Source of the DNA: Terriglobia bacterium
GTDB lineage: Bacteria; Acidobacteriota; Terriglobia; UBA7540; JAPUME01
Direction of reading: 5' to 3'
Assembly: GCA_965222885.1 (NCBI GenBank)
Contig: OZ244973.1
Coordinates: 1,157,664 to 1,221,663, forward strand
DNA: 64,000 nucleotides
Position numbers and translations under genes: made by a program. The notes under the pieces were generated by a model. The model saw nothing but the letters and a program-made list of their open reading frames with translations. It was not told where the DNA came from and searched no databases. Positions 4,550 through 44,587 of the stretch are shown here, in pieces. Within the stretch, counting starts at the first letter, position 1; each line of letters starts with the position of its first letter.

Positions 4550-4904
4550 GAAGGTTCTAGAAAAAGGTCAAATTGAGAAATAAGAAAAAAGGCTCGCGGA
4601 TCGAACACGACAAGGCGCTTCTGCAGGTGATGGCGGCTGGTAAATAGGCTGCCGAACGGGGGAACAGATCTCTGTGGAACCCGCTGGTAGTGTCGCCTGA
4701 TGTGGCTCATCGGTCCGCGGGTGCCGAACTACCCACTAAACACGGGTCAGCTACCATGTCCACCCACCACTGCCTATGGTAGGAATGGGCATACTGTGTG
4801 CGCCTTTGGCGCAATTAGGTTAATATGCGGCAGTCCCCGCGGTACATGTACCGACCGCTGTGGCACGGCGCTTGGCCTCCGAAGAAAAGAGGGCTGAAAC
4901 CGAC

Positions 4905-5408
4905 ATGACGAACAATGGCGTAACCACAACCGACTTGGCCTACGCCGAAATCCTCTGGAAATCAGCCGACGCCCTGCGCGGTCAGATCGACGCCGCCGAG
5001 TACAAGCACGTCGTCCTCGGCCTGCTCTTCCTGAAGTACATTTCCGATTCCTTTGAGGCGCGGCGCGGCGAGCTCAAGGGGGAACTGGAAGCCGACGGCA
5101 TCAGCGGGCCTCAGATCGAAAACCTGCTGGAGAGCCGCGATGAGTACACCGCCGAGCGGGTCTTCTGGGTGCCGCCCGAGGCACGCTGGCAGAACCTCCA
5201 GAACCAGGCCGCGCGGCCCGACATCGCCACGCTGATCGACGACGCCATCCTCGCTGTTGAGCGCGACAACCCGAACCTCAAGGGCAAGCTGCCGCGCGAC
5301 TATGCCCGTCGCGGCATCGCGCCGGAGAAGATGAAGGGGCTGATCGATCTGATCGCCGACATCGGCTTCAAGGGCGATCGCGCCAAAGCTCGCGACACGC
5401 TCGGCCGC
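4905..5408 (+). pseudogene. hsdM: Type I R-M methylase HsdM, N-terminal domain only
   Basis: LWKSADALRGQIDAAEYKHVVLGLLFLKYISDSFE is the HsdM_N signature. Homology ends at ...ARDTLGR (5406-5408), where VYEYFL should follow. Beyond that the frame reads the antisense of the helicase fragment. Confidence 0.8.
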
Positions 5409-5614
5409 GATAATGTTGGCAATAGTCTGGGACTTGCCCGTGCCTGGCGGACCCTGCACCACAAGATTCCTGCCCTCGCGAGCCAAAGAAATGACCTGGG
5501 TCTGAAAGGTATCAGCATCCAGGATGTGCCCGAGATCCCTGGGGTCGGGGAAACGCGTGTCGAGGTTTTCGTCGGGAGCAAAGATGCTAGATTCTGGCTC
5601 GAAGCCGCCGACTA

Positions 5615-6734
5615 GTGGACTGTCGCAAAGTAACTTTATCTATGGAAAGGGCGTCTATACAGTATGCCCTTTCAAAGCGAACCGTTCGTGTTGAGCCAAC
5701 AGCAACGATCCGAACTCGAGGAGGTTGCCCGTTCGCAATCGCTGCCCGCCGGCTTTGTCTTACGCGCTCGAATCATCGCGTTACTCGCCGACGGCCTCTC
5801 CTACGCCGCCGTCGCCGACAAACTGGATTGCTCCACACCGACCGTCGGGAAATGGAAGAAACGCTTCCTCGAACACGGACTCGACGGACTGGAAACCCAC
5901 CGTCCCGGGCAACCACCCTCGAAACTCACCGCCCGCTTGCGTGCCAAAATCCTCAATGCCACCCGCCGCCAGCCTGGCGACGGTTCGACCCACTGGTCCT
6001 GCCGCAAACTCGCCAAAGAACTCAGCATCAGCAAAGACTTGGTTCATCGTGTTTGGCGGGAAGCCGATCTCAAGCCGCATCGGTTGGAGCGCTACATGGC
6101 CTCCAACGACCCCGACTTCGAGCGCAAAGCTGCCGACATCATCGGTCTCTACCTCGATCCGCCGCGCCATGCCGCCGTGTTCTGCGTGGACGAAAAGACC
6201 GCTATGCAAGCGCTCGACCGTCGCGACCGCGTCTTGCCGCTGTCCCCTGGACGCGCCGAGCGGCACGGTTTCGAGTACAAGCGCAACGGCACTCTCTCCC
6301 TCTACGCCGCCTTAAACACCAAGACTGGGCAGGTGCATGGGAAGACCGCCGCGCGTCACACCAGCCAGGACTTCGTCGAGTTTCTCGGTGAGGTCGTCGC
6401 CCGCTGCGAGCCCGACCAGGAGATTCACCTCATCCTCGACAACCTCTCGGCTCACAAGACCAAGCAGGTGGCAGCGTTCCTCGAGCGGCACCCCAACGTC
6501 GCCTTACACTTCCCGCCGACTTACTCGTCGTGGCTGAACCAAGTCGAGTTGTGGTTTTCTAAGGTGCAACGCGACGTCATTGCCCGCGGCGTGTTCCCCT
6601 CCACCACCGATCTCGCCCGCAAACTCCGCCGCTACATCAACGCCTACTCGAAAGACGCCAAGCCTTTCCGCTGGAAATACTCCAGGCCCTCCCGCCGCAT
6701 CCGCCATGGTAAAACTATCTCTGCGACAGTCCAC
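5615..6734 (+). mobile_element. Intact IS630-family insertion sequence (1120 bp) with TA target-site duplication
   Basis: The terminal inverted repeats are GTGGACTGTCGCAAAGTAACTTT (5615-) and its imperfect reverse complement ...AGAGATAGTTTT-type, ending in TGCGACAGTCCAC at 6734. TA lies at 5613-5614 and 6735-6736. There is a single transposase ORF. Confidence 0.9.
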
Positions 6735-6737
6735 TAG
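5664..6737 (+). CDS. IS630-family transposase (HTH + DDE)
   Basis: 357 aa with an N-terminal HTH (LSYAAVADKLDCSTPTVGKWKKRF) and DDE_3 motifs (VFCVDEKTAMQALDR, LILDNLSAHK, YSSWLNQVELWF). Confidence 0.95.
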   Translation: MPFQSEPFVLSQQQRSELEEVARSQSLPAGFVLRARIIALLADGLSYAAVADKLDCSTPTVGKWKKRFLEHGLDGLETHRPGQPPSKLTARLRAKILNATRRQPGDGSTHWSCRKLAKELSISKDLVHRVWREADLKPHRLERYMASNDPDFERKAADIIGLYLDPPRHAAVFCVDEKTAMQALDRRDRVLPLSPGRAERHGFEYKRNGTLSLYAALNTKTGQVHGKTAARHTSQDFVEFLGEVVARCEPDQEIHLILDNLSAHKTKQVAAFLERHPNVALHFPPTYSSWLNQVELWFSKVQRDVIARGVFPSTTDLARKLRRYINAYSKDAKPFRWKYSRPSRRIRHGKTISATVH

Positions 6738-7951
6738 GATGCGCTCGAGGATCTCAGTTCCAGCGGTGCCATCCCACATGCTGTTAGGGTCCAGGTCCTT
6801 CCACATCAGGAATTTGGCGAACGAGAAGAATCCCAACTCGATGGTGTTCGGTCGGACGCGCCAGCGCGTCAGCGACGACACTGTCTCCTGGACACGCACG
6901 AAGTAATCCGAAGGCAGCCATTCGTTGCCCTCGGGAAAATCCGGCAGTGTCATACCGAAGTCATTCGACAGCAATGCACGGAGAGAGAGATTCAGCTCTA
7001 GGTCCTGGTCCCTGAAAACGAGTCTAAACCGACCTCGGGCGCTGGTGCGCTCGAGGTCGACCGGAAGCAGGATCAATGGCGCAAAACGCTCAATCTGCGA
7101 AGAGTTATTTTCGTACCAGCGGAGGAAACCCAGGGCGAGGAACAGAACGCTGATCCCCTGCTCCTCTTCGAGGGTCTGAGCGTCCCTATACAGCGTGAGT
7201 AGCTTCTTTTGGAGACGGTCGGCTGTTAGTTGCGTCTGGAGTTTGTTGTCGCTTTGGTAAGCGGCGGCCATTCCAAGCTCGACATCTTCGGTCGGTAAGA
7301 AAACAGACTCATCGTCGCTATCCTCCTCCTCCGAGAAGAGGCCACCTTGAGCGGACTGGAAGCTCATGCTCTTACCTTGGAGGTAGAGGATCTTGAAAAC
7401 CTCGTCGGCCAGCTCATCCTTGATGGTGATCTGCTTGGCCCGATCTTTCCTGATCGGCGCGTTGATGAGCTTGTTGCGTTTCCCGACGTCAAGCAGTTGC
7501 TGTCGGAGATTGTTGACGGCTTTTACCACGCTGCTATCCGGGTGAGAGTCAGGGCGCGTGTGCTTGTCGCTCGCAGATTGATTCATAGTCCCACTTCCAC
7601 CTTGACCGCCTCGATCAACTCGTGTCCTACCATGATGGACGTGCCAGCGATTACCCAATGAACCATGCTAGATTCTTTCCCGATCAGTAAGCTCGTCCAG
7701 CGCTTGAGATCACCCCAAGCGCTGCACTCCTGATTTCTTAGACGAGACAACCTAACACGTGTCGAATCAGATCCTCCACTATAGCCCGGGAGTAACGAAC
7801 ACCGCGAGGAGCACCCTCTTACTACTAACCCCCGGCAGGCAGCCTTACTCCCCGGTAGAAAGCTTCTGAGAGCCGTTTTCAAAGCTTTCCACAGATCGCT
7901 CTGATCCTAGGGGTTTTTCCACGCTGAAACAAGACGACACTCAAGCAGGAT

Positions 7952-8326
7952 TTACTGTCCGCCTTCCCCGCTGAAGTAGGCCGCCCAGTCCTCTATCAAC
8001 TGGCGCCGACGCTCGAATAGATCTGTCCAGCGATACAACGCTTCAATCCGGTTTCTCAACACGTGAGCCAAGGCCAACTCGGTGTTCTCCTGGTAGATGT
8101 TGGCCCAGCGCGCAATCTGGTTCAGGTTCGATCCGATCCGCGCCATCTCCCGGATCCGCTTCCGCTCCCGCTCGGCGTGCACCACCGTCCAGGTCCGTAC
8201 TTTCCCCAGAGATTGCCGCACCAGATCTGACAGCGCCAACCCCGCCCCGGCGGCCTTGGCGTGCCACTCGGCCCGCTCCGTCCGGCTGGCCCGGATCTTC
8301 ACCCAGACCTTGCGTCCCTCGCGCAT
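7952..8326 (-). CDS. mobC: MobC-family mobilisation (relaxosome accessory) protein
   Basis: IGSNLNQIARWANIY is the MobC signature (iG.NlNQiAr..N), with an RHH-like N-terminus (VKIRASRTERAEWHAKA). No relaxase follows downstream. Confidence 0.75.
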   Translation of the reverse strand: MREGRKVWVKIRASRTERAEWHAKAAGAGLALSDLVRQSLGKVRTWTVVHAERERKRIREMARIGSNLNQIARWANIYQENTELALAHVLRNRIEALYRWTDLFERRRQLIEDWAAYFSGEGGQ

Positions 8327-8844
8327 GCTTTTCCTTGGGGGGTCGAAGGGGGTATATGCCCCCCTCGCCAGTCCCTGCCGGGGATCACGCGCCTACGTGG
8401 CCCCAAAGGGTAGACTGACTTCGTCTCTATCTTTGCTTTATTTTCGCTTATTCAGGGCTATTCTAGCACGAATAACAGGAATCCAGGCATCCATGGCTAC
8501 ATTCTCAAATCTCGAACCTCGGTCGTTCCTCAGCAGGATGTTTCCCCCTTCCTTCCTGGGTCCGGTTGATCCCCAGATTCATCCTGCAGACTCCTGGGAG
8601 GGCGAGGGTGTTTGCCCGTGGAAAACCGTCTTCGATCACAGATGTCTGGGGAAATTTCACGGAGATTGAGATTGCAGGAAGCTGCAGGAGCGCTTGGCAC
8701 TGCGAGGCCCGGTATTACTTGGCGAAAAGGACTCGCCGGGCATACAGGGCCAGGAGGCGCGCGTTATATTCGCTCCACGGTCTCCGATCTTATGGATCAG
8801 TTTCTGGTGGAGTATCTGCGGGCGAACGAAAAGGCGTGTGATGA

Positions 8845-9990
8845 TTAGAGTCTCAACTGGGACTTTGATGGAATCGCCTTTTTCATCACCGCCTCGGCCT
8901 GCTCCAGGTTCTTGACAGTGCCTGGGAGATCCAGCTTGTTGTCCGGTTTGAAAGCCATCCAGTCGTCCTTCCACCATGCCACAGTCATCCAATTGCCGAT
9001 CACCATCCTATTCGGCTTCATCACCTTGTCCCCACCCGCGGCCTTAACCCGCTCGTGCCAATGCCATTTCAGGTCTTGCTTCTGCTCGCTGGTCTTTCCC
9101 TCTGCGTCAACCTTGAAGCACAGCCTGGCCTCCTCTCCAGGATAGGCTTCGATTTGAAGGTACAATTCGGGATCGGGATTATCTTTCAGCCACCACCAGA
9201 AACCTAGGAACCCCCCGGAGGGGTTAGGAACGTACCCCCATTGGATATGGCGGCAGGTGCCGTTGCCCAACGTGCGTTCGAGGTAAAGATAGAAACCTTC
9301 CCAGCTCCGCCAGGATTCCTGTCCGGCATCCCGGGTCCATTCCACGTAGCTATTGGTTTGGTCCTCCAACTCCCGCAGGTGCTGCCGGAAATCCCACAGG
9401 ATCGAGTTATGGCCCTTGTAGCTGTCGAGCACTTTCAGGAAGTACTTGCGATGGAATACCTTGTAGTTTTTTATGGCCTCGATGCGGCAGTCATTCGCGA
9501 GAGACTGGTTTCCTGTCTTGAGATAAAGCGGGTAGAGATTTATCTCCAGGACCTCGCCGACGAGCTTCGTGCGACCCTCTATGACTTCGTTGTAGTACCT
9601 TTCCAACTGCCTGCCGTGATCCTTGGTGCCCGTCTTGTCCTCAACGAGAAGCACATGCTTGTCATTGATCCGCGCGAGAACGTCGATGCTTCTATCCTGC
9701 TGATGAATCTCTGTCTTGATCTCGTCCTCCAGTTGGATGGGATCTGTGTCGGCCCTCTTGTGATTGAGCAAGGCGAGGACGAACCGGCGGCCGCACCGGC
9801 TCAGTTCTTCCTGCTCCGGTCCGGCGCCTTTCCCCTGGCCTGCCCATTGGATCAACCAGCAGATCATCGCATCCTGCGAGAGTTCCTTGGTGGCGAAGTG
9901 AAACAGGTTGGGATCGCTCAACGGCGTCCAGTATTTCTTGGGTGACTTTACCTTTCCCGGCTTTACATATCCATTGTCGGGTTTGTCCAT
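8845..9990 (-). CDS. PD-(D/E)XK nuclease superfamily protein (PDDEXK_4-like)
   Basis: SIDVLARINDKHVLLVEDKTGTKDHGRQLERYY fits the D...(E/D)xK core with the trailing QL.rY typical of this family. AAGGAGGA lies 7 nt upstream of the ATG. It sits 17 nt downstream of the ankyrin gene. Confidence 0.8.
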   Translation of the reverse strand: MDKPDNGYVKPGKVKSPKKYWTPLSDPNLFHFATKELSQDAMICWLIQWAGQGKGAGPEQEELSRCGRRFVLALLNHKRADTDPIQLEDEIKTEIHQQDRSIDVLARINDKHVLLVEDKTGTKDHGRQLERYYNEVIEGRTKLVGEVLEINLYPLYLKTGNQSLANDCRIEAIKNYKVFHRKYFLKVLDSYKGHNSILWDFRQHLRELEDQTNSYVEWTRDAGQESWRSWEGFYLYLERTLGNGTCRHIQWGYVPNPSGGFLGFWWWLKDNPDPELYLQIEAYPGEEARLCFKVDAEGKTSEQKQDLKWHWHERVKAAGGDKVMKPNRMVIGNWMTVAWWKDDWMAFKPDNKLDLPGTVKNLEQAEAVMKKAIPSKSQLRL

Positions 9991-10007
9991 TGTCTCCTCC
10001 TTGAATC

Positions 10008-11066
10008 TCAGCGTCGCGCGGCGGTTTTCAGCACCTTGAAAACCTCCGGGTTGTTAACCATTCGGAGTGCAATATCGAGCGTGGTTTGGCCGCCTTTATT
10101 CCGTGCGTTGGGGTCGGCACCCGCATTGAGAAGTGCCTTGAAGATTTCCGCGTTCTCGTTCATTTGAGCCGCCACATGGAGCGGTGTGGCACCGAATTTA
10201 TTCCGTGTGTTTGGATCGATACCAGCCCCGAGAAGGGCTTTGACGATCCCCAGGTTATCACTAAACTCCACGGCCTGATGGAGCAATGTATTACCGTATC
10301 CACCGTACCGGATCATCGGATCGGCGCCTGCGCTTAAAAGCGCCTCGACCATCGCCGGGTTGTGGCGAGCGTTGTACGTCTTTACCGCATCTTGGAGCGG
10401 GGTAGGGGCGTATTCGTGCCGTGCGTTGGGGTCGGCGCCGGCATCGACAAGCGCTTCGATGAGTAACGGATTGCTGCTGTTCCTGACGGCCCAATGCAAC
10501 GGGGTAGTACCATCCATCTGGTCTTGCGCCATCGGCTGGGAGCCGGCATTAAGGCAGGAAACCACATCGTCCAGAGTGGCGAATTCCCAAAAACGCGAGT
10601 CTCTCCAATGCCTGCAATCTACCCATCTCAGTTGCCATTTCTCCCGAGGAGCCGGAGGCTTTCCCCTCTCCGATTTGATCACGTCAAGCATATTCTTCAC
10701 TTGCTTTACGCCCTCCGCACGCCGGACGATTGCACCCGCTTGGAACCGCTCCTCGTTGCTGGCAACCTGCCCGGAGACGGTTACCACTCCCTTGGAGAAG
10801 GTCACGCTGATTTCCCGGTTTTTGAGTTGTGGATTCCTGAAGAGTTGCGATTGAATTTCAGATGCGAACTGCCGGTCAGGTGCTTTTACGACCCGTTGAT
10901 CATCGGACGTGTGCTGTTGTCCGGCAGTGGCAACATTCCTATTTGATGGGTCTCTGGGAAGAAAAGAGCCGCCAATCCCCATCATAACCACGGAGACGAA
11001 AATACCTAATATGGCTCGCTTGCGATTCATATATAGGCGTTTGATCGGCTTTATCAGACAGACCAT
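10008..11066 (-). CDS. Membrane-anchored BON-domain plus ankyrin-repeat protein
   Basis: N-terminal TM segment (ILGIFVSVVMMGIGG; likely start Met13 at 11030), a BON-like segment (ISVTFSKGVVTVSGQVASNEERFQAGAIVRRAEGVKQVKNML), then about 5 ankyrin repeats (TPLHWAV...AGADPNAR). Confidence 0.85.
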   Translation of the reverse strand: MVCLIKPIKRLYMNRKRAILGIFVSVVMMGIGGSFLPRDPSNRNVATAGQQHTSDDQRVVKAPDRQFASEIQSQLFRNPQLKNREISVTFSKGVVTVSGQVASNEERFQAGAIVRRAEGVKQVKNMLDVIKSERGKPPAPREKWQLRWVDCRHWRDSRFWEFATLDDVVSCLNAGSQPMAQDQMDGTTPLHWAVRNSSNPLLIEALVDAGADPNARHEYAPTPLQDAVKTYNARHNPAMVEALLSAGADPMIRYGGYGNTLLHQAVEFSDNLGIVKALLGAGIDPNTRNKFGATPLHVAAQMNENAEIFKALLNAGADPNARNKGGQTTLDIALRMVNNPEVFKVLKTAARR

Positions 11067-11104
11067 ACTGGTGATGCAGAGAATCAGGCCTGCGAAAATA
11101 ATAA

Positions 11105-11128
11105 TTCGGAATTTCCTAGATTAAGGTA
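11105..11128. repeat. Left terminal inverted repeat TTCGGAATTTCCTAGATTAAGGTA
   Basis: Exact reverse complement of 14243-14266. Confidence 0.9.
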
Positions 11129-11199
11129 TTGACAACCGCCCTAATCCGTGAGAAAATGTTTCTGCGATTGAAACAGACCCCACGGAAAGGACGGTTGCC

Positions 11200-12072
11200 A
11201 TGGACATTATACAGATTTTCCAACGGTTCCCCACTCAAAAAGACTGCATCTCCCACCTTGAGAAAGCCCGCTGGAACGGCACCCCACGTTGCCCCTACTG
11301 CACGTCAACCCGCACGACCAGGATGCAGCTTCGCCATCATTGCTATGAGTGCCACACCTCGTTCAGCGTTACCGTGCGCACCATCTTCCACCATACTCAC
11401 CTGCCGATTCAGAAATGGTTTCTGGCCGTCATCCTGATTCTGAACGCCAAGAAAAGCGTATCGGCTCTCCAACTCTCCCGCGACCTCAAGGTGAACAAGA
11501 ACACCGCCTGGCGGATTGCCATGCAGATTCGGAAGGCCATGACGCAGGCCGAACAACGCAACCTACTCACCGGCATTGTCGAAATGGATGAGACCTATAT
11601 CGGGGGAAAGCCACGGAAAGGTAGCGGGGATCATACTTCCAAGCGGGGCCGGGGAACCGACAAGGCCACAGTGATCGGAGCCGTGGAGCGTGAGGGCCGA
11701 GTGACTGCTAGAAGCGTTATGAAGGGCAAGCTCAAAGGCCGCAACCTGCGGTCCTTCGTGCGAGAGAAAATCGACGCCAAGGACGCCATGCTGATTACCG
11801 ATGAGTACACTGGCTACCGCGGCATGGAGCGGGTACTGCCCCACGCCGTCATCAATCACAGCCGGACCTACGCCGACGGCCCCATCCATACGAACACCAT
11901 CGAGGGATTTTGGGCCCTTCTCAAGCGCGGGATGTTCGGCCAGTTCCACAGTGTGAGCCGACACCACCTGCAACGCTACATCGACGAGTTTTGCTACCGC
12001 TACAACCTGCGGCACGAGAAGCCGGAATCCGCCTTTGATATGACGATCAATCTCGGACTTGGAGTTGAATAA
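11200..12072 (+). CDS. IS1595-family (ISXO2-like) DDE transposase with an N-terminal zinc ribbon
   Basis: CPYCTS...CYECH zinc ribbon, VEMDETYIGGK, LITDEYTGY, NTIEGFWALLKRG and YIDEFCYRYN are classic IS1595 motifs. Confidence 0.9.
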   Translation: MDIIQIFQRFPTQKDCISHLEKARWNGTPRCPYCTSTRTTRMQLRHHCYECHTSFSVTVRTIFHHTHLPIQKWFLAVILILNAKKSVSALQLSRDLKVNKNTAWRIAMQIRKAMTQAEQRNLLTGIVEMDETYIGGKPRKGSGDHTSKRGRGTDKATVIGAVEREGRVTARSVMKGKLKGRNLRSFVREKIDAKDAMLITDEYTGYRGMERVLPHAVINHSRTYADGPIHTNTIEGFWALLKRGMFGQFHSVSRHHLQRYIDEFCYRYNLRHEKPESAFDMTINLGLGVE

Positions 12073-12980
12073 TGAAGGAATCCAAGGAACAGCCTTTGAA
12101 GGTGATCGCCGGAGCACCGGACCGGCCACTTGTGATCGGGAACATCGAGATACCCTGCTACGTACTGGAAGATGAAACCCGTGTACTGAGTCAGCGTGGA
12201 GTAAGCGAGGGGATCGGACTCAACCCAAAGGCCGGCTTTAGAATGCCTCATTTCATGGCCTCTAAAGCAATAAACCCTTTTGTTTCCGATGATTTAGTGC
12301 CGGCTTTGAAATCACCCATCCCATTCAAGAATCCAGTTGGAGGAGGGAATGCTTACGGCTATCCAGCTACCATTCTTCCTAAAATCTGTGCAGCCGTTAT
12401 TGAAGCCAAGAATAAAGGAAAACTGCGACCGCAACATATGAAAGCAGCCGAACGTTGCTGGATTATTATGCAAGGATTTGCGCACGTCGGCATCATCGCT
12501 CTTGTTGACGAAGCAACTGGATACCAGGATCTGCGTGACCGACAGATACTCCAGAAGATACTCGATAAGTATCTTCTGGCAGAGCGTGCAAAATGGGCGA
12601 AGCGATTTCCAGATGATTTCTATAAGGAGATATTTAGGCTTCGTGGATGGCAATGGCAGGGAATGAGAGTTAACCGACCTCAAGTAGTAGCTCATTATAC
12701 GAATGATATTGTGTGGGATCGCCTTGCCCCAGGAGTGCGCGAAGAGCTTGAGAAATTAAATCCTCAAACCCCCCAAGGAACGCGGCGGGCAAGACACCAT
12801 CAATGGCTGACACATGACATTGGTCATCCTTCCCTTCAGAAGCACCTTTACGGAGTTATTGCACTTATGAAGTCAGTAGTTCAATCCAAGGGCGGATGGG
12901 GAGAATTTAAGCGAAGGATTCAACGTGTATTTCCCAAGATTCACACAACCCTCGACCTTCCGTTCAATGAGGATGGGTAG
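12072..12980 (+). CDS. P63C-domain protein (phage-derived DNA-associated domain)
   Basis: ALVDEATGYQDLRDRQILQKILDKYL...WAKRFPDDFYKEIFRLRGW...NDIVWDRLAPGVREEL matches my recollection of the P63C domain. The ATG overlaps the tnp stop (TAATG). Confidence 0.6.
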   Translation: MKESKEQPLKVIAGAPDRPLVIGNIEIPCYVLEDETRVLSQRGVSEGIGLNPKAGFRMPHFMASKAINPFVSDDLVPALKSPIPFKNPVGGGNAYGYPATILPKICAAVIEAKNKGKLRPQHMKAAERCWIIMQGFAHVGIIALVDEATGYQDLRDRQILQKILDKYLLAERAKWAKRFPDDFYKEIFRLRGWQWQGMRVNRPQVVAHYTNDIVWDRLAPGVREELEKLNPQTPQGTRRARHHQWLTHDIGHPSLQKHLYGVIALMKSVVQSKGGWGEFKRRIQRVFPKIHTTLDLPFNEDG

Positions 12981-12982
12981 AG

Positions 12983-14206
12983 ATGCCTCAAAACTGGAAC
13001 AATCGCACCATGTGGACAGGCGACAACCTGGACATAATGCGCGGCATGAACTCCGAGAGCGTTGACCTTATTTACCTGGACCCTCCCTTCAACAGCAATC
13101 GCACGTACAGCGCGCCTATTGGCTCTCAGGCAGCCGGAGCCGCCTTCAAGGATACCTGGACCTTGAGCGACGTGGACAACGCCTGGCATGGCGAGATCGC
13201 GGACCGGCAACCAGCCTTGTACTCGATCATCGACGCTGCCGGTCACTCGCATGGCAAGGGCATGAAGTCCTACCTCATTATGATGGCCGTCCGGCTCCTG
13301 GAAATGCGAAGGATTTTGAAGGAAACGGGGAGCTTGTATTTGCACTGCGATCCGACCGCCAGCCATTACCTCAAATCACTCATGGATGCGATATTTGGGG
13401 CGGGAAACTTCAGAAATGAGATCGTGTGGTGCTATCGAGGGGGGGGGGTGCCCAAGTATGACTTTGCCCGCAAGCACGATATTTTGTTCCGATATTCAAA
13501 GACTGAAAACGTTGTTTTCAATGTGGATGCCGTTCGGGTAGCGTACTCTGAAGATTCGTCTGAACGCCTAAAGTATAAAGCCCGTTCGTTTCGGGAAAGT
13601 GGAACCTATGACAACTACAATCAGAACCCCAGGGGCAAGCATCCTGAAGATTGGTGGCCTATGCAGCCGATCATGCCATCATCCAAAGAACGAGTAGGCT
13701 ATCCCACTCAAAAGCCCCTCGCCCTATTAGATCGCATCATCAAGGCCAGCTCCAACGAAGGCAACCTAGTTCTGGACCCCTTTGCTGGATGCGCCACGGC
13801 TTGCGTGGCCGCCGAACGCCTGCATCGGCAATGGGTGGGCATCGACATATCGGAGAAGGCCGCCGAACTCGTACAGGTCCGCATCCGCAGGGAAATCGAC
13901 CTTTTCCATGACTTCAAGCCGATCCGCCGTTCGGAGGTTCCCCAGCGCACCGATCTAGGAAAGCTGCCGAACTACCGGACGCACAAGCATCAATTATTTG
14001 GAAAGCAGGAAGGACACTGCCGGGGGTGCAGGGTAGCCTTTCCGTTCCGCAACTTCACGGTGGACCACGTGGTTCCGAGAACGCGCGGTGGGACCGACCA
14101 CCTAGATAACCTCCAGCTGCTCTGTGGTGCCTGCAATAGCCTGAAGGGAGACCGAGAACAGCAATACCTGGTTGCCAAACTGCGTGAACAAGGGATACTC
14201 TCATAG
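12983..14206 (+). CDS. Beta-class N4/N6 DNA methyltransferase fused to a C-terminal HNH nuclease
   Basis: Motif IV DLIYLDPPFNS lies near the N-terminus and motif I VLDPFAGCATACVAAERL later, which is the beta-class order. The C-terminal CRGC...DHVVPRTRGGTDHLDNLQLLCGACNSLKG is a canonical zinc HNH. Confidence 0.9.
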   Translation: MPQNWNNRTMWTGDNLDIMRGMNSESVDLIYLDPPFNSNRTYSAPIGSQAAGAAFKDTWTLSDVDNAWHGEIADRQPALYSIIDAAGHSHGKGMKSYLIMMAVRLLEMRRILKETGSLYLHCDPTASHYLKSLMDAIFGAGNFRNEIVWCYRGGGVPKYDFARKHDILFRYSKTENVVFNVDAVRVAYSEDSSERLKYKARSFRESGTYDNYNQNPRGKHPEDWWPMQPIMPSSKERVGYPTQKPLALLDRIIKASSNEGNLVLDPFAGCATACVAAERLHRQWVGIDISEKAAELVQVRIRREIDLFHDFKPIRRSEVPQRTDLGKLPNYRTHKHQLFGKQEGHCRGCRVAFPFRNFTVDHVVPRTRGGTDHLDNLQLLCGACNSLKGDREQQYLVAKLREQGILS

Positions 14207-23418: not shown

Positions 23419-23909
23419 AAGGAGCCTGGCAGGAGCGAGCCTGTAAGCCGAATCCTGTCTCCCTGTCGATTTGCACCGGCGGGGGAGGTGATCATTCCTC
23501 TAGGCCCGACATTGCTGCGGGGCTCAAGCGACCTACCCGGGAGTTCGCCCCCGGCCTCACGCCAAGTGAGGCCGAGTTACGGAACGGGCCGTTCCTCCTC
23601 CCCTATTTGGTCTTGCTCCAGGCGGGGTTTGCCCTGCCCTCCGCCTCACGGCGAAGGCGGTGCGCTCTTACATTAAGCCCCCAGGGGCCGCACCCTTTCA
23701 CCCTTACCTGAGCCCGACTCTCGACCGAGCCGGGCCATCGGCGGTATCTTTTCTGTGGCACTCTCCGTAGCCGTCCCGTCACCAGGACGACTCCTCGCCG
23801 TTAGCGAGCACCCTGCCCTGTGGAGTTCGGACTTTCCTCCCCCCGCGCCGAAATCCTTGCGGACTTCGGCCGGGCGGCGATCACCCGGCTGGTTCCTGCC
23901 AAGCTCTTC
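23419..23909 (-). ncRNA. rnpB: RNase P RNA, bacterial type A
   Basis: The reverse strand reads GAAGAGCTTGGCAGGA...GGAGGAAAGTCCGAACTCCACAGGGCAGGGTGC...GACAGGATTCGGCTTACAGGCTCGCTCCTGCCAGGCTCC. The P4 halves and the P1 pairing are both present. The ends are approximate. Confidence 0.85.
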
Positions 23910-34463: not shown

Positions 34464-35414
34464 TCACTTGGCCGGCACAAACTTCTGCACGCGCATTCCC
34501 ACGTTGACGTCCACCACGTAAACGGCTCCGTCTTGACCGACTCCCACGTCATGGGCCCAGTAGAATTGACCGTCGTAGGACCCGAACGAGCCCCATTGCT
34601 CCAGGATGTTCCCTTCCAGGTCCAGCTTCAGCACTCGCGCGCGCTCGGGCGGTTTGGGGTTCATATCGCCGCCGTCCGCCACGTAGAGGGAACCGTCGCG
34701 TCCCACGGTGAGGCCCCAGGGCCGCCCCAGCTCCTCGCTCTGCCATTGATGGAGGAACGTTCCGTCGGGCTTGAAGACCTGAATCCGGTTGTTGGACCGG
34801 TCGGCTACATAGACGCGCCCCTTCGCGTCGAGAGCGATGCCGTGGGGCAGATCGAATTCGCCGGCTTTCGTCCCTTTGGATCCCCAATCGAAAAGGAACT
34901 GCCCGTCGGCGGAAAACTTGGCGACCCGGCTGTTTCCGTAACCGTCGGACACATAGAATTCTCCCGTCGGAGCCACGACCACGTCCGTGGGCTTATTCAG
35001 GTGCGTTCCATCCAATCCGGGAACCCCCTTGGCGCCCACCGTCATTAAAAGCTCCCCGTTGTGGCTGAACTTGAACACCTGATGGAGTCCGGTGTCGGTG
35101 ACCCACACGTTGTCCTGGCTGTCCACCGTCAGGCCATGAGACACGCCGAACATCCCATCACCCCACGAGGCCACGATCTTTCCCGAGTCCCCATCGAAAC
35201 AGAGGATGGGACGGTCTCCCCGGTGAAAGACGAAAACGTGATTGTGCGAATCCACCTCCACGCCGGAAACCTCTCCCAAAGCAAAACCCTGGGGTAGCTG
35301 AGGCCACCCATGTACGACCCGGTAAGAGCCGGACCCGTGTTCGGAACCGGCTGGGGCACCCGGAACTGCTATCCATGCCAAAAACAAGACGATGATCGCG
35401 CCTAAGGCTCGCAT
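34464..35414 (-). CDS. Secreted NHL-repeat beta-propeller (peptidyl-alpha-hydroxyglycine amidating-lyase-like)
   Basis: Signal peptide MRALGAIIVLFLAWIA preceded by AAGGAGG. Repeated ...VYVADRSNNRIQVF... NHL units. Confidence 0.8.
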   Translation of the reverse strand: MRALGAIIVLFLAWIAVPGAPAGSEHGSGSYRVVHGWPQLPQGFALGEVSGVEVDSHNHVFVFHRGDRPILCFDGDSGKIVASWGDGMFGVSHGLTVDSQDNVWVTDTGLHQVFKFSHNGELLMTVGAKGVPGLDGTHLNKPTDVVVAPTGEFYVSDGYGNSRVAKFSADGQFLFDWGSKGTKAGEFDLPHGIALDAKGRVYVADRSNNRIQVFKPDGTFLHQWQSEELGRPWGLTVGRDGSLYVADGGDMNPKPPERARVLKLDLEGNILEQWGSFGSYDGQFYWAHDVGVGQDGAVYVVDVNVGMRVQKFVPAK

Positions 35415-35640
35415 TCTGTTCCTCCTTGCAGCTTCGAGCGTATCGTCCCCTCCGCCGCTCGAAACCTGAATCGGTTGCATTCGCCCGGTTGGTTCAGTCT
35501 CTTTCCTGCACTCCGCTGCTCGCGTTGCCCCATAGTACACGAGGCGAGCGGGGATTGCCACCATGGGTGCTCGTTCAGTACATCCGGTACACTTGGACTT
35601 CCTTTCGTGATGGGAATTCTATACTTGACGATCCTAAAAG

Positions 35641-35874
35641 TTAAAGACGCCCTTGGCTGTGAAACCGGCTGATTTGGCCAAGGTTCAGGAGGTGTAGCAG
35701 CTTATTCTTGCCCGCTTGTCCCTTGAGCCACATCTCCAGGGCGATCAGGAGGAGAATCAGGAACGCAAAGCCGGCCCGCAGCATCCGGTTCAGGGTTTTG
35801 ACGGACTCGCTCAGCGCCACCACCTGGACGTTCAGCTCCCGCAACAATTCCGACATTTCAGGCGTCAATCCCAC
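35641..35874 (-). CDS. Small single-TM protein, holin-like by position
   Basis: One TM (AGFAFLILLLIALEMWL). It overlaps the stop of the tail-X gene. P2 has its holin directly after gene X. Confidence 0.4.
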   Translation of the reverse strand: MGLTPEMSELLRELNVQVVALSESVKTLNRMLRAGFAFLILLLIALEMWLKGQAGKNKLLHLLNLGQISRFHSQGRL

Positions 35875-36071
35875 AAGCGCACCTTTTCGGTGGTGCGGGG
35901 CAGGCTGAGCATGGGCAGCTCGAGCTTGATTCCGGCGGGCAGAACGGGGTCGGAGAGGGCCAGGCCGGGGTTGGCTTCCAGGACGGCTTCCACGGCGCCG
36001 GACGCCTGACCGTAGTATTGCGAGCAGATCTGGTCCAGGCGGTCGCCGTCGCGGGTTAGATAGGAGGCCAT
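35865..36071 (-). CDS. Phage tail protein X (P2 gpX-like, LysM-type fold)
   Basis: MASYLTRDGDRLDQICSQYYGQASGAVEAVLEANPGLALSDPVLPAGIKLELP...VRLWD aligns end-to-end with my recollection of P2 gpX (..GDTLDAICVRYYG...VLAANPGLA...LP.G..VELP...V.LWE). Confidence 0.8.
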   Translation of the reverse strand: MASYLTRDGDRLDQICSQYYGQASGAVEAVLEANPGLALSDPVLPAGIKLELPMLSLPRTTEKVRLWD

Positions 36072-36078
36072 CGGACGC

Positions 36079-36351
36079 TCATATCTGCCGCCAGACGCCA
36101 TTCGTCAGGTAGCCGTGCCAGTACCCCCTCTTACCTTTACTGGATTCAATCGATGGATTTAAGGTGGGAGACTCACGATTTCCATCCCATACCCAGCCGT
36201 TCGGAACGTTCAGAGGAAGATCGGCTATACCGACGCTAGGTACAAAGCACACAATTTTTTTGTCCCCTTGGGTAAAGTAGAACTCCCCCTCGGCGAGCTT
36301 CTGAAACTCATCCTTACCATCGAGATCGCTTCTATGCACTGCTTTCTTCAT
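36079..36351 (-). CDS. DUF6527-like small protein (cysteines of the usual zinc site replaced)
   Basis: ...LPLNVPNGWVWDGNRESPTLNPSIES...WHGYLTNGVW resembles the W.w.G....PTl.PSI....HgfirnG core as I recall it. Low-certainty family call. Confidence 0.45.
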   Translation of the reverse strand: MKKAVHRSDLDGKDEFQKLAEGEFYFTQGDKKIVCFVPSVGIADLPLNVPNGWVWDGNRESPTLNPSIESSKGKRGYWHGYLTNGVWRQI

Positions 36352-37400
36352 GCGATAGCCTCGACGGACACCGAATAGTTCAGGCTCCCGTCATCCCCCG
36401 GATTAACCCGGATGGCCGCCTTGTCGTCGTAGGTTTGATAAATGGTTTTCTCCCAAGTATCCGAAGCCCCCAGGCTGAAAGAGTACAGAGGGTACTGGAC
36501 TCCATCGTAGCTGAGGATAACTTGTACTCGATTGGGATTCAGTCGGTTGTGTTCAGTGGAATTATTGAACAGGATGATGTTCCAGTTCTTATATCGCTTG
36601 CCATCTGGAACACTCAGAAGAGTCTCCAGAGAGGTTGCCGTTCCCACCACCGCCACCGGTCCTGGTTCTGGTTCCTCGGCAGGAACCTCTGGAGGAGTCG
36701 GCGTTTCCGGCTCCGGAGTTTCAGGAGCAGGCGGATCAGGCTCAGGTTCTACGGTTGGATGGCTCCATGCTCGGGCAGCATCTGCCGTGTTATCAATAAA
36801 CCAGACCGTTGTTCCTAAATTGGTTCCCCCTCTCCAATTTCCTGTTCCCAAGGCGAGGTCTTTTTCTGAGTCTCGCTCTTGTGTTGCCGCGTTAAAGGCT
36901 TTGGCAATATCGTTATAATGACCCACGAACCACAGCGTGGTGCCATCACAGGCCCCACCCTTCCAGGTTTCTGAACCAAGATAGATATCTTTGTCTGCGT
37001 CTCTGTCTCGCGTTGCGGCGTTGTAGGCCCTCGCGTAGTCAGTTTCATTATCAACGAACCACAACGTGGTTCCGTCGCTGATTCCCCCTTCCCACTTCCC
37101 CTCACCGAAAGTAATATCCCTTAACGGTGTTCTCACCCGCGCGTTAGCATTGTAGGCGTAGGCTTTGTTGTCTGCATTACTAATGAGCCACAACGTCATT
37201 CCGTTACTGACGCCCCCATCGTAGTACCCCGTCATATCATGCGCAAAGTGTCGTACCAGCGTCGCAGCGTTGAAGGCAATCAGCTTCTCGTTGGTCGAGT
37301 CAAGAATCCATAGCGTGGTTCCATCGCAGACAGCCCCGTCCCAGTATATGAAATCCTCAAGGATGAGGTCTTTCGAGGTATCCCGTTCGATCATTTTCAA
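36348..37400 (-). CDS. Five-repeat (about 44 aa, DGTTLW...AYNAATR.RD) protein with a Pro/Glu/Thr linker and a C-terminal beta domain; candidate receptor-binding/tail-fibre-like protein
   Basis: Repeats at aa 17-212, linker PTVEPEPDPPAPETPEPETPTPPEVPAEEPEPGP, about 100-aa C-terminal domain. Overlapping start/stop with both neighbours. Confidence 0.8.
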   Translation of the reverse strand: MKMIERDTSKDLILEDFIYWDGAVCDGTTLWILDSTNEKLIAFNAATLVRHFAHDMTGYYDGGVSNGMTLWLISNADNKAYAYNANARVRTPLRDITFGEGKWEGGISDGTTLWFVDNETDYARAYNAATRDRDADKDIYLGSETWKGGACDGTTLWFVGHYNDIAKAFNAATQERDSEKDLALGTGNWRGGTNLGTTVWFIDNTADAARAWSHPTVEPEPDPPAPETPEPETPTPPEVPAEEPEPGPVAVVGTATSLETLLSVPDGKRYKNWNIILFNNSTEHNRLNPNRVQVILSYDGVQYPLYSFSLGASDTWEKTIYQTYDDKAAIRVNPGDDGSLNYSVSVEAIA

Positions 37401-37415
37401 CTCCTGGAAGGCTTA

Positions 37416-38101
37416 CTATCCGTCATCCGCAACCTCATCCTGCTGGGCTTGAACCACGGTAATTGTGTAGTCCTGGGTAATGCTCGCATCGGAGGCAAAT
37501 ACCCGCAGAACGAACCTACCCGTGCCAACTCCCAAGATGGCATCGTTGACGGCAGATTGAATCCCCGGCCCCACGTAGGAAAACGTGATGCCTTCCTGCC
37601 CTTCCACCACCAGGTCTCCCAGCCCCCCTGTGCGGCCCCTACCGGCAAGGTAGCGGTGTACTCGAAAACGTGGCGGTTGAAGGCCGGCGTCAAGGGAAGC
37701 AACTGGTTGCCCAGATAGACCTCCAACCTGGTCAGCCGGGGGTCGCGCTCCGGCGCGGGCGGGCGATAGACGATCAGGTGGTAGGTCTGCTGGGTCTCAC
37801 CATCTAAGGCCGTAACGTCCAAAAAGAAACTATTGTCGCCTTCCTCCAGTCGATTGCCGGTGGGAGCTCGGAGAGCAATCGAAGCTCCGTCCACGATCAC
37901 CGGCTCGCCGTAGCAGAGGGCGCGAGTGTCCGGCTCCTCAACGTCTACCCGATACTCCAAGACTTCGGAATCGAAGTCAGGCATGAGTGGGAATTTCCGC
38001 GTAGGTCGGGATTCATCGCCAAGCGTCCACACATCGCAGAATAGAGTACGCAGGCGGGCGCGCCGAGTGGAAACGGGTTGTGGGGTGGTGCGATTTCTCA
38101 T
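37416..38101 (-). pseudogene. Tandem cadherin-like beta-sandwich domain protein, frame broken at a G6 run
   Basis: The upstream frame reads ...RLTRLEVYLGNQLLPLTPAFNRHVFEYTATLPVGAAQGG. After CAGGGGGGC (complement of 37623-37628) the homologous continuation LGDLVVEGQEGITFSY...DASITQDYTITVVQ lies in the +1 frame and ends at 37416. Confidence 0.65.
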
Positions 38102-38604
38102 GGGCAGCAGCGGGTGTCCCCGCCCATCCGCCGCCCTCAATCACGCTACGGAGCGGGGAGGTCCGCAGCGTCCGATAAGTTTTCTTTCTCGCCGCCGCTC
38201 CCTCCTCGCGAAGCCTTTGCGGCGCCTTGCTTACTACTACGATGCCAGTATGAGCAAGGCGGTCGTATGGCTGTCAAGTAAAAACGACACGAAACGAAGA
38301 CATGCACAACATCTAGTACTTTTTCTGCATCCGAGGCGCGTTCAGCGTGCGCAACGACACCTCCCGAACGGCCACCGGCCACCTCCACGGGTTCGCAGAC
38401 CCGGAGGATCGGTGCCACCCGACATCCGAGCCGGAAGGGAGATTCCCGCGCATTCTTGCGGTGGATACGCTATACTGATCGCATCGGACTGGGAAATGGA
38501 GTCCTTCAGAGTTACGCGGCCCCGGTGCGCAGTCGAATGGGTCAGCTTTACCGCGAACCAACCTTCAGCCGCGTAGAGCAACAGAATCTACCAGAGGAGC
38601 GTCG

Positions 38605-39402
38605 ATGAAGGCGAACCGAGTCAAACAGGCCTTGAAGGCCGGCGATAGTGTTCTCGGCACCATGATTCATGAGGTCCGGAACCCCGAGCTTGCCTACTTG
38701 CTGGCGGCGGCGGGAATGGACTTCCTGCTGGTGGACACCGAACACGCCTCGCCGGACACCGAAACGATACAAAACCTGACCCGAGCCGCTAAATCAGCCG
38801 GTATGGTTCCCCTGGCCAGAGTGACCGACAACGAATACTTCCTGATCGCGCGGACCCTCGATATGGGCGTCATGGGAGTCATGGTGCCCCGGGTGGACAC
38901 TCGGCAGGAGGCGGAGCGCGCGGTCGCCGCGGTAAAGTACCCGCCGGAAGGACGCCGAGGGTTCGGAATGCGCCCGGTCATCACCGATTACGAATCGACC
39001 AGCGTACCCGAGGCCATGGCTTGGTCCAATGAAAATACGCTGGTGATTCTCCAGGTAGAGAGCGAGGCGGCCGTGGCCAACCTGGAGCAAATCACCCGCG
39101 TCCCCGGGGTGGACGTGTCGCTGGTCGGGCTGAACGACCTGTCGATTTCTCTGGGGGTGCCGGGGGATTTCAAGCATCCGCGAATCGAGGAGGCTCTGCG
39201 GCGGGTGTTCGAAGTGTGCCCGCAAAACGGGGTCTCGCCGGCGGTTCATGTATCGGACATCGAATCCGCCAAGCGATACCGCGCAAGGGGGATGCGGTTC
39301 ATTATGCTGGCTTCGGAAAGCCGCCTTCTCATGAAGGTCGCCTCGCACGCGGTTCGTGAAATCATGGGGGACCCCCGCCGTGAGGGGAAGGGGCTGTACT
39401 GA
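38605..39402 (+). CDS. HpcH/HpaI family aldolase
   Basis: GMDFLLVDTEHA...VPRVDTRQEAERAVAAVKYPPEGRRGFG... are typical class II aldolase (HpaI/GarL) motifs. Confidence 0.85.
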   Translation: MKANRVKQALKAGDSVLGTMIHEVRNPELAYLLAAAGMDFLLVDTEHASPDTETIQNLTRAAKSAGMVPLARVTDNEYFLIARTLDMGVMGVMVPRVDTRQEAERAVAAVKYPPEGRRGFGMRPVITDYESTSVPEAMAWSNENTLVILQVESEAAVANLEQITRVPGVDVSLVGLNDLSISLGVPGDFKHPRIEEALRRVFEVCPQNGVSPAVHVSDIESAKRYRARGMRFIMLASESRLLMKVASHAVREIMGDPRREGKGLY

Positions 39403-39574
39403 ATTCATACCGAAGCGCGAGACCTTTGCGTAGAAAGAAACCCATGACGGGGTTGAGTCAAAAAGAGGGGCCTGGGGCGATAGGGACACCTTTGCTTGAA
39501 ACCCCTTGACTTGAGTCAAGTTGTTGACATAGACTACGTAATTCTGTTCGATCCCACTTTCCAGGAGACTGCCC

Positions 39575-43415: not shown

Positions 43416-43719
43416 GCGGGTCGAGAACGGCGATTTGCGGCGCTACATCACGTCCCAACGGTTATCGAAGTAGGGTTCACGGATGATTTTTCCCCTGCCT
43501 ACGACAAAAAATCCCACCCCCAGGGAGGTACCTGCCTCCTTCTTACCACTGGCTCCTGGGGACTTGGTGAGCAGCTCCCACAGCGAGTCGAGAGCCTGTC
43601 TCCGCTTTACCGCAGCGAAACCTGAATACGGACTACCCATCCGGTTACCAACGGGTGAGTAGTCCTCCCTCCCTCCGCCTTCCTACCTCGTGCGGAAACC
43701 AAAAACAAAGTTCGGGTTT

Positions 43720-43863
43720 TTTGTGGATTGGAAAGCGGTATCAATGGCTTCTATCACCGTGTTCGGAAAGCAGCATTCCCACCGCTACTTGAGTGAGTTT
43801 GATTTCAGGTATAATGTGCAAGGAGTCTCGGATAGAGCCCGCACAGCGATAGCTATTCAGTGA
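43720..43863 (+). pseudogene. IS1595-family transposase, C-terminal stub
   Basis: ...FGKQHSHRYLSEFDFRYNVQGVSDRARTAIAIQ* parallels HHLQRYIDEFCYRYNLRHE... of the intact copy at 11200-12072. Confidence 0.6.
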
Positions 43864-43925
43864 GTAGAAGGAACTGGTGCCTCATGTATCGGGACTCACC
43901 GCATCAGATCAAAGGGAGAGTTTAT

Positions 43926-44432
43926 ATGAGTCAGCGTCAAAGCTACCGATTCATAATCGACGCCTTCGCACCTGAAACAATCCCAATGTCCCGATTGGCA
44001 GAATATATGTCTGAATTGGCAAAGCTACTCGGAAGCCAAGAGCGTGTCCATTTCGTTCGTGTAGAACCGGGAAGCACTGTGCTGGTGCAAGAAATAGAGC
44101 ATGAGGCCATCCCAAAGGTTAGAGAACGACTAGGAGAAATCAAAACTCGGATCGCTCCAGAAGACGCCATAAAGGCATACTCCAATATAGACAGTAGGCG
44201 AAGAGGAGCTGGCACAACGTGAGCCAAGATTAAATTCGATCACCAGATTGTCGCCATAGCTAAAGTTGAGAATGTACAGGCGATCTACTCGGATGACAAA
44301 GATGTAGAAAAATACGGGAAGGCTATCGGAATAGAAGTTAAAAAGATTGTTAACCTTCCACTTCCTCCACCAAAACAGGACGAGCTTTGGGAAGAAAATG
44401 CCGAAAAAGATGAAGACCCAACGCGCGGTTAA
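43926..44432 (+). pseudogene. Hypothetical ORF interrupted by an in-frame TGA (44220-44222); the C-terminal part is PIN-like by recollection
   Basis: MSQRQSYRF...RRRGAGTT-TGA-AKIKFDHQIVAIAKVENVQAIYSDDKDVEKYGKAIGIEV.. are in one frame. Low-GC junk region. Confidence 0.35.
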
Positions 44433-44587
44433 GGAGAGGATATAACTAAGGCCCTTTCGTTTTGCGGAAGATGTCTCTGATCTCCTGAAAGTGAAGCCGA
44501 AGAGGCAATAACCAAACACGCAACGGCCAAGAAAATAAAAGAGGGTGCCTAAACGATAGAGCCGGTATCATCAGAAGAAGGAACCGA

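Follow-up and report, generated by a model that had tools for sequence, protein, structure and literature searches.

A five-gene block in a Terriglobia chromosome, probably an eroding remnant of a prophage tail module

Recombination of defective prophages with phages has been documented (De Paepe et al. 2014, PLoS Genet, PMC3945230). Proteins of the DUF6527 (BubE) family were described as serine-histidine peptidases with a C4 zinc finger from bacterial ubiquitination-like (Bub) operons; phage copies of DUF6527 and their placement in tail modules go unmentioned in that paper (bioRxiv 10.1101/2024.11.21.623953). Here, a stretch of 64,000 nucleotides from the contig OZ244973.1 of a Terriglobia bacterium (hereafter, the window) was analyzed. 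It contains a block of five co-directional open reading frames (ORFs) at positions 35641–38140, all on the minus strand, designated g1 (cadherin-like protein), g2 (beta-propeller protein), g3 (DUF6527 protein), g4 (tail protein X) and g5 (small membrane protein).

The block is probably what deletions have left of a tail module from a P2/Mu-like myovirus prophage, a cryptic remnant without an organised host function, and its phage origin is highly probable. Every gene of the block has a phage precedent. The insertion site is empty in two syntenic relatives (L004 and L009), one end of the block lies inside a truncated domain (g1) and the other inside a gene fusion that makes g5 chimeric, deletions segregate among strains, and no mobility genes accompany the block.

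Gene content of the block

The genes are tightly packed: g2 and g3 overlap by 4 bp (ATGA), g3 and g4 are separated by 7 nt, and g5, with a GTG start codon, overlaps g4 by 10 nt. A preliminary description of the window, made from the sequence alone, had reported five minus-strand ORFs with overlapping or nearly abutting ends, and the ORF listing bore this out. For comparison, eight contigs with the block at the same site were used, five of which derive from one soil sample; the flanks of the eight are ~98.5% identical. These contigs are long-read metagenome assemblies, in which single homopolymer indels are unreliable.

The gene g4 matched the family Phage_tail_X (PF05489; E = 3.6e-21, 75 bits against a cutoff of 22) over profile positions 5–58 of 60, as well as phrog_46 (4e-25). 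A sequence search against solved structures returned gpX of the phage P2 (PDB 2LTF, 4.9e-14) and PA0627 of the R2-pyocin (6U5B, 4.8e-12). Thus, the homology to P2 gpX claimed in the preliminary description is supported by both profile and solved-structure searches. The closest outside relatives, P0049 (78% identity) and P0052 (64%), are both located in U-X-D modules at prophage ends, and the gene order around P0049 is tape measure, U, X, a small transmembrane (TM) gene and D. None of the other block genes was found in 80 viral contigs with a gpX homologue. Neither gpU and gpD nor baseplate genes apart from g4 were found in the window and, since no baseplate, hub (gpD) or tube partners lie within 64 kb, g4 cannot play a structural role locally. 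A further tail module was observed in a prophage of a 2.36-Mb bacterial contig (L175, 8756–11195), where Phage_base_V, GPW_gp25 and a 79-aa N-terminal stub of Baseplate_J are followed immediately by tail X and gpD; from this arrangement, an internal deletion that removed the part between J and U is likely, which would be a further case of erosion in a tail module.

The gene g3 was attributed to DUF6527 (PF20137; E = 8.6e-8, 32.4 bits against a cutoff of 23.6, profile positions 22–61 of 63), with a match to phrog_15183 at 3.7e-10. The earlier DUF6527-like call is therefore confirmed above the gathering score. S67 and H79 were invariant in an alignment with three phage homologues and all strain alleles, and g3 accordingly keeps the Ser-His pair proposed to be catalytic in BubE. 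The C4 zinc finger is absent and a single cysteine is present, whereas the homologues from the phages Mae-JY30 and RHEph12 keep Cys clusters. No genes for E1, E2 or a ubiquitin-like partner were found near g3; its neighbours within 10 kb are the aldolase, CarD, RNR, NHL and dehydrogenase genes.

Homologues of g3 are present in cultured phages. In Microcystis phage Mae-JY30 (PP438422.1), the gene order is tape measure, GpU (PF06995), DUF6527 (1e-15), tail X and D, and the stop and start of DUF6527 and tail X overlap, though the identity to g3 is only ~34–43%. In Rhizobium phage RHEph12, the g3 homologue adjoins a PAAR protein gene. At other viral DUF6527 loci from IMG/VR, gpX was found within 6 kb in 2 of 80 cases, so this adjacency is rare. 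The loci compared were L177 3393–5377 (Mae-JY30), L178 3905–4494 (RHEph12) and L179–L258 (the 80 IMG/VR loci); across them, DUF6527 genes were widespread in phage contigs, occupied tail-module sites in the cultured phages and had an invariant Ser/His pair. Phage DUF6527 peptidases in myovirus tail modules may strip ubiquitin-like tags that defence systems put on tail proteins.

The five repeats of g2 (129 bp or 43 aa each) were modelled by AlphaFold2 as a five-bladed beta-propeller with a predicted local distance difference test (pLDDT) value of >95 for most of residues 1–215; the C-terminal domain (~100 aa) was poorly modelled and has no recognised fold. This agrees with the five-repeat protein with a Pro/Glu/Thr linker reported earlier. 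A fold search with the model returned generic propellers only (Pizza, WD40), and a tachylectin-like lectin identity, which was considered, is unsupported. In a collection of 5.8 billion proteins, 29 homologues of g2 were found, all of them metagenomic, which have the propeller in common but not the C-terminus. The three homologue contexts examined were all phage contigs. P0001 sits among a baseplate hub, a PAAR protein and a baseplate wedge, while in P0006 and P0007 the propeller is located at the far end from N-termini that, by their sequence, look like those of tail fibres.

The g2 negatives are weaker than they look. The homology search did not return g2's own cluster, and the exact g2 proteins (window 36348–37394; L165 4454–5509) are missing from the collection though they were called on related contigs, so that absence from it is weak evidence. 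Scans of IMG/VR for close relatives with g1, g2, g3, g5 and P0012 found nothing, as did scans of JGI (Joint Genome Institute) metagenome contigs with g2 and g3; the g2 family alignment was too variable for profile scanning of IMG/VR. Separately, a bacterial protein (P0024; L173, 3194–4261) was observed to fuse a cadherin-like domain to 'SDGTTLW' propeller repeats as in g2. Its neighbours are sulfatases, a 1,724-aa cadherin-like/leucine-rich repeat protein and a GH16 gene, and g1- and g2-type domains are therefore also joined in a carbohydrate-related bacterial setting.

The gene g1 matched PF12733 above the cutoff both in the window (E = 4.7e-8, 33.8 bits) and in the intact allele of the contig L165 (7e-14, 52.5 bits). 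Domain 1 begins at profile position 9–10, the first strand (profile positions 1–8) being absent, and g1 therefore looks 5'-truncated. In the window, a frameshift at a run of six G (~37622–37627) puts the second cadherin-like domain into a different frame (ORF 37416–37610). The run has four G in L168, and the alleles of L165 and L172 differ in sequence at this site; all three read through. L170 shares 100% identity with the window, the frameshift being no exception. Thus, the tandem cadherin-like protein of the preliminary description holds as two PF12733-type domains in intact alleles, but not for the window copy, which is frameshifted and 5'-truncated. The frameshift may be genuine or may reflect a sequencing error in the homopolymer.

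It can be asked whether the block is an accessory specificity locus for a tailocin, gene transfer agent (GTA)-like or prophage tail machine encoded elsewhere, for which it would provide fibres, a fibre helper, gpX and a release protein, all acting in trans. The gene transfer agent of Rhodobacter is known to have accessory loci at scattered positions, and gpX is a true baseplate component. Variable fibre genes beside conserved structural genes are also a pattern reported for tailocins (PMC13195805). Nevertheless, such a role is highly improbable: there is no other tail gene in 64 kb, g1 and g2, in contrast to P0006 and P0007, lack a recognisable N-terminus for attachment to the baseplate, loss of function in g1 and g2 is frequent, and g5 is chimeric.

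Residues 1–40 of g5 align with a small one-TM ORF of L174 (2786–3019; 53% identity, 80% positives, E = 5e-9), which follows gpX, precedes gpD and overlaps the gpX end by the same 10 nt as g5 overlaps g4. An exhaustive HMMER search of 1.84 billion representatives returned only three proteins outside the g5 cluster, matching residues 40–71 only, with 72–81% identity (HMMER) or 74–84% (tblastn). All three matches are PF20472 C-termini (PDDEXK_11), and one of these proteins adjoins a Dam-type methylase. From these two matches, g5 was interpreted as a small phage membrane gene with a nuclease-derived 3' end. The hydrophobic stretch LRAGFAFLILLLIALEMWL, with a maximum Kyte-Doolittle value of 2.06 over 19 residues, ends at the fusion point. 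A reading of g5 as a relic of gpD was rejected, as there was no similarity in any frame.

The preliminary description had placed g4 and g5 together as an X/holin pair. In the closest phage relative, a small one-TM gene does come after gpX and has the same overlap, but the holin part of the claim did not hold: no family match was found for g5 in Pfam, PHROG, NCBIfam or PADLOC, phmmer comparison with the 73–104-aa gpX neighbours of P2-like viral contigs (including 73-aa holins) gave E > 4, and neither endolysin nor spanin lies beside g5, the next gene being the host NHL gene. A working lysis or secretion cassette, in which a g5 holin would release g1 and g2 while the LysM protein and the peptidase act on the wall, is extremely improbable. 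The hydrophobic helix of g5 and its position behind gpX, which in P2-type phages is that of a holin, would suit it, but the C-terminal third of g5 is a nuclease relic, the closest relatives have gpD and not a lysis gene after the small ORF, an endolysin is lacking, and the activity known for DUF6527 is that of a peptidase for ubiquitin-like proteins and not of a wall hydrolase (bioRxiv 10.1101/2024.11.21.623953).

Insertion site and strain variants

The flanking genes encode an HpcH/HpaI aldolase and an NHL protein, so family matches agree with the flanks named in the preliminary description. The closest matches of the NHL gene were found in Terriglobia and Bryobacterales metagenome-assembled genomes (Acidobacteriota). 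In L004 and L009, which belong to related genera, the gene order is the same as in the window (RNR, CarD, aldolase, NHL and dehydrogenase, with aldolase and NHL divergent) and the neighbouring genes share ~65–78% protein identity, but the block is missing. The interval between the aldolase and NHL genes is 3,040 bp in the window and only ~100–130 bp in these relatives; hence, the block, together with the 464-bp spacer upstream of it, is additional DNA specific to this lineage. The additional DNA measures ~2.9 kb, and homology to L004 and L009 was undetectable past position 38604. The GC content is 52–54% inside the block and ~60% outside.

No attachment (att) sites, target-site duplications or flanking direct repeats were found around the block. 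Capsid, terminase, sheath, tube, endolysin and integrase genes were not found in the whole 64 kb, as judged from Pfam analysis of ~30 further ORFs and gene calls on near-identical contigs; the hallmarks of an intact P2-like prophage, att repeats among them, are thus absent from the window, and the lack of endolysin, capsid, sheath/tube and integrase genes noted earlier on either side extends over its full length. Window scans also revealed no lysozyme or peptidase families and no tRNA genes. The proteins g1–g5 gave no match to PADLOC defence models at E<=1, there were no Rfam elements inside the block, and reading of the five predicted proteins by eye revealed no evident N-terminal signal sequence.

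Several deletions and lesions were found in the comparison contigs. A 1,708-bp segment is absent from L164, L166 and L169; the 8-mer CCGGTGGC is present at both breakpoints in the window (36652–36659 and 38371–38378), and this loss carries the signature of a microhomology deletion between the CCGGTGGC repeats. In L172, a 10-bp deletion between ATCCGG repeats truncates g2. The window and L170 share the frameshift in the G run of g1. In total, four to five of the eight contigs have lesions in g1 or g2. In L165 and L168, g1 and g3–g5 are open; L168 is noisy (3x coverage) and its g2 was called as two pieces (190 and 100 aa), a split that is probably due to read errors. Five haplotypes of the block coexist in one soil sample. 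The exact g3 and g5 proteins were recorded on one 4.04-Mb contig and on several others.

The coordinates of the features are presented in Table 1. A sigma-70-like promoter was not found on the minus strand of the spacer 38141–38604, where the preliminary description had advised looking for one; this spacer diverges among strains at the low rate of the flanks. Downstream of the block, a promoter-like site (TTAACT-17-TAGAAT) was located at 35644–35616. The longest NHL ORF (34464–35564, 366 aa) extends 50 residues further at the N-terminus than the 316-aa version on related contigs, where gene calls on L164–L172 put the start at MRALGAII; yet tblastn of the NHL protein against L004 aligned from residue 13. 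The true NHL start is thus uncertain, and so is the size of the spacer between g5 and NHL.

Table 1. Features of the block and its spacers in the window
Feature	Position	Strand	Description
Upstream spacer (g1 to aldolase start)	38141..38604		Non-coding; mostly extra DNA; left 8-bp microhomology copy at 38371–38378
1,708-bp deletable segment	36660..38367		All of g1, g2 residues 1–247 (propeller and linker) and 227 bp upstream; absent from L164, L166 and L169
g1	37416..37984	-	Two cadherin-like beta-sandwich domains, 188 aa in intact alleles; frameshifted in the window
g2	36348..37394 (ORF to 37400)	-	Propeller 36759–37394; Pro/Glu/Thr linker 36654–36758; C-terminal domain 36351–36653
g3	36079..36351	-	DUF6527 (BubE-family) protein; Ser67/His79 kept; four zinc-finger cysteines absent
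g4	35865..36071 (ORF to 36101; probable true start 36071)	-	Full-length tail protein X, LysM-type baseplate 'glue', 68 aa
g5 5' part	35740..35874	-	Small phage membrane-protein gene; amphipathic N-terminus and one hydrophobic helix; natively follows gpX
g5 3' part	35641..35739	-	Nuclease-gene relic (PD-(D/E)XK, PDDEXK_11) of 31 terminal codons; in-frame fusion to the small membrane gene
g5–NHL spacer	35415..35640		Promoter-like site and short divergent tract 35548–35599

Divergence of the alleles and origin of the block

With five to eight haplotypes compared, the statistics on selection are descriptive. In the comparison of the window with L165, the proportion of synonymous differences (pS) was 0.013–0.067 in flanking genes. 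In the block, it was 0.40 in domain 1 of g1, 0.36 in the g2 propeller, 0.30 in the g2 linker, 0.23 in the g2 C-terminal domain and 0.12 in g3, with ratios of nonsynonymous to synonymous proportions (pN/pS) of 0.13, 0.17, 0.15, 0.13 and 0.19, respectively. The synonymous divergence of the g1–g3 cassette is thus ten- to twenty-fold that of the flanks. No synonymous changes were found in g4 and g5, for which pN/pS is not defined in this pair and which diverge among strains at the flank rate. The divergent zone spans ~36100–37900 and ends inside g3 and inside g1. The alleles form a mosaic: L168 equals the window in g2 and differs from it in g1 (pS 0.23) and g3 (pS 0.17), and the deletion haplotypes L164 and L166 share the junction yet differ by pS 0.34 in g3. 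The GC content at third codon positions (GC3) is 0.52–0.59 in all alleles of g2 and g3, compared with 0.84 for g4 and 0.65–0.93 for host genes, and its shift falls near the boundary between the variable and conserved parts. Variable positions among the g2 alleles showed no obvious clustering on the propeller repeat. A diversity-generating retroelement was considered and rejected, as most of the differences are synonymous and a search for a template repeat was negative; no reverse transcriptase was noticed among the scanned ORFs.

In shallow allele pairs, pN/pS was 0.36–3.5 for g2 and g3 and 0.17–0.69 for g4 and g5 together; across haplotypes, g4 and g5 have three nonsynonymous and about two synonymous variants, that is, no synonymous excess. 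The truncated g2 stump of the deletion haplotypes also has a low pN/pS (0.06, L164 against L166), and a low pN/pS therefore does not prove selection at this locus. Two non-coding tracts, 35548–35599 and 39400–39500, contain 8–10 single-nucleotide polymorphisms (SNPs) per 100 bp between strains that are otherwise ~1% diverged; the former is a cluster of 10 SNPs and correlates with the g2 allele group. These tracts may be small imports or fast-evolving promoter regions.

The excess divergence of g1–g3 implies either imported alleles or long-maintained alleles under balancing selection, and not in-place neutral drift. Imports by recombination are favoured, with phage relatives as likely donors, because loss-of-function variants are frequent, recent changes seem unconstrained, the low pN/pS extends to the g2 stump and the foreign composition of g2 and g3 is common to all alleles.

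Long-maintained alleles would fit a host module under diversifying or balancing selection, in which the cell would keep phage-derived g1, g2 and g3 for itself, possibly as a bacteriocin of a lectin-like type, as a decoy that blocks receptors or as a sensor of phages, with gpX and the small membrane protein as conserved helpers. We consider such a module unlikely. It would account for deep alleles (pS up to 0.40 against a background of 0.01–0.07) at pN/pS of 0.13–0.20, for a recombining mosaic in which five haplotypes coexist in one sample and for the chromosomal position of all known close copies, and the open g3–g5 frames in 8/8 contigs, the in-frame indels of L165 and the cadherin-like and propeller fusion in the carbohydrate-related bacterial locus (P0024, L173) agree with it. 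However, the five proteins have no evident N-terminal signal sequence, g1 is 5'-truncated, g5 is fused with a nuclease relic, and g1 or g2 is damaged in about half of the contigs. Moreover, shallow comparisons gave pN/pS near or above 1, the low pN/pS is shared by the truncated g2 stump, no PADLOC family was matched, and the block is absent from related genera. A particular form of this proposal, in which the bacterium keeps g1–g3 and frequency-dependent selection diversifies them as a weapon resembling a lectin, as a receptor decoy or as the locus that sets the specificity of an unseen tail-like particle, is likewise doubtful. If it were true, a 'dead' piece of prophage would serve a soil acidobacterium in recognition at the strain level.

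Several observations weigh against an eroding remnant. A complete prophage ancestor was not found, and we infer the deletion history; no phage-borne or other close copy of g1, g2 or g3 was found in IMG/VR or JGI contigs, and all g1 and g3 cluster members in the collection of 5.8 billion proteins map to this chromosomal locus. The frameshift of g1 falls in a homopolymer and is possibly a long-read error. None of the eight contigs has a lesion in g3, g4 or g5, and L165 keeps all five ORFs open in spite of ~7% DNA divergence over the 3.6-kb block region (10–20% within g1–g3) and in-frame linker indels. Finally, the contrast in pS between g1–g3 (0.12–0.40) and the flanks (0.01–0.07), the pN/pS of 0.13–0.20 and the mosaic pattern mean that a neutral relic needs outside donors.

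Despite these points, the remnant remains the preferred reading. The preliminary description had proposed two options. The minimal phage remnant is supported by the extra DNA relative to the related genomes, the phage precedents, the broken ends and the segregating deletions, and in no relative was the block found inside a complete prophage. The domesticated adhesin with a LysM-type module received no positive support, given the lack of evident signal sequences, the common loss of function in g1 and g2 and the absence of a synonymous excess in g4 and g5; the domestication reading is not supported, although the deep alleles of g1–g3 with low pN/pS keep it alive.

According to the remnant reading, this acidobacterial species would once have had a prophage in the interval between aldolase and NHL. 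A series of deletions, several of which would have joined short direct repeats, may have reduced it to five pieces, namely the 5'-truncated immunoglobulin-like g1, the putative propeller-type receptor-binding g2, the DUF6527 gene g3, the gpX gene g4 and a small membrane gene cut down to its first two-thirds, which would have been fused to the tail end of a nuclease gene to give g5. As a unit, such a block would build nothing and lyse nothing, and its tight gene spacing would reflect inherited phage architecture and not be evidence of a host operon. Erosion would continue in the population, and a few imports by homologous recombination from related phage or foreign copies could have produced the divergence of g1–g3, the low pN/pS having been acquired outside the locus.

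Other regions of the window were also annotated. An 876-bp segment between the RNR and radical-SAM genes (43703–44578; GC content 0.46 at 44000–44499) is absent from the near-identical L164 and represents a second strain-variable insertion; it contains an ORF ending in ...YLSEFDFRYN..., presumably the C-terminus of an IS1595-type transposase. Positions 1–14206 are occupied by a mobile/defence-type gene cluster without phage structural genes, which includes genes for DUF5677 with a zinc ribbon, an N-terminal fragment of HsdM followed by a DDE_3 transposase, DUF4011, PDDEXK_4, an ankyrin and BON protein, an IS1595 transposase, a P63C-domain protein and an N6/N4 methylase fused to HNH. The only Rfam match in the window is a bacterial RNase P class A RNA (23428–23896, minus strand, 228 bits).

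Comparison with known systems

As an object, the whole block is of a known kind, a cryptic prophage remnant, and such scraps are common. Its value is that of a clean natural example, with five coexisting haplotypes and two independent repeat-mediated deletions caught in the act, and the contrast in divergence between the fibre-like genes and the flanks makes it testable whether defective prophages are passive traders of tail-fibre alleles or are kept for host benefit. Two minor points were recorded as well: BubE-type DUF6527 genes occur beside gpU, gpX or PAAR in phage tail modules, a placement on which the BubE paper is silent, and soil phage tail proteins use a rare beta-propeller family.

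The block resembles the described cryptic prophage remnants (PMC3945230) in its isolated phage genes between host genes, the absence of integrase and capsid genes, the truncated ends, the ongoing deletions and the mosaic of divergent fibre alleles. It differs from them in its very small size (five ORFs), in its host, an uncultured acidobacterium, and in that the searches revealed no donor phage. A comparison with the Pectobacterium carotovoricin fibre loci, which are kept diverse by recombination (PMC13195805), revealed variable fibre-like genes beside conserved tail genes and mosaic alleles in close strains, as in the block; unlike the carotovoricin loci, the window contains no tail machine and its fibre-like genes are often broken.

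The protein g4 aligns with P2 gpX and PA0627 over the full length, and its closest relatives belong to a module of tape measure, U, X and D; unlike these proteins, it has no baseplate, hub (gpD) or tube partners in 64 kb. The DUF6527 gene g3 scores above the PF20137 cutoff and has the Ser and His of BubE conserved. However, in contrast to the Bub operons, E1, E2, the ubiquitin-like partner and the zinc-finger cysteines are missing, and the context is that of a phage tail, as in Mae-JY30 and RHEph12. The tail module of Mae-JY30 shares with the block the position of DUF6527 directly upstream of tail protein X, although in Mae-JY30, a complete myovirus, GpU and gpD lie on either side of the two genes.

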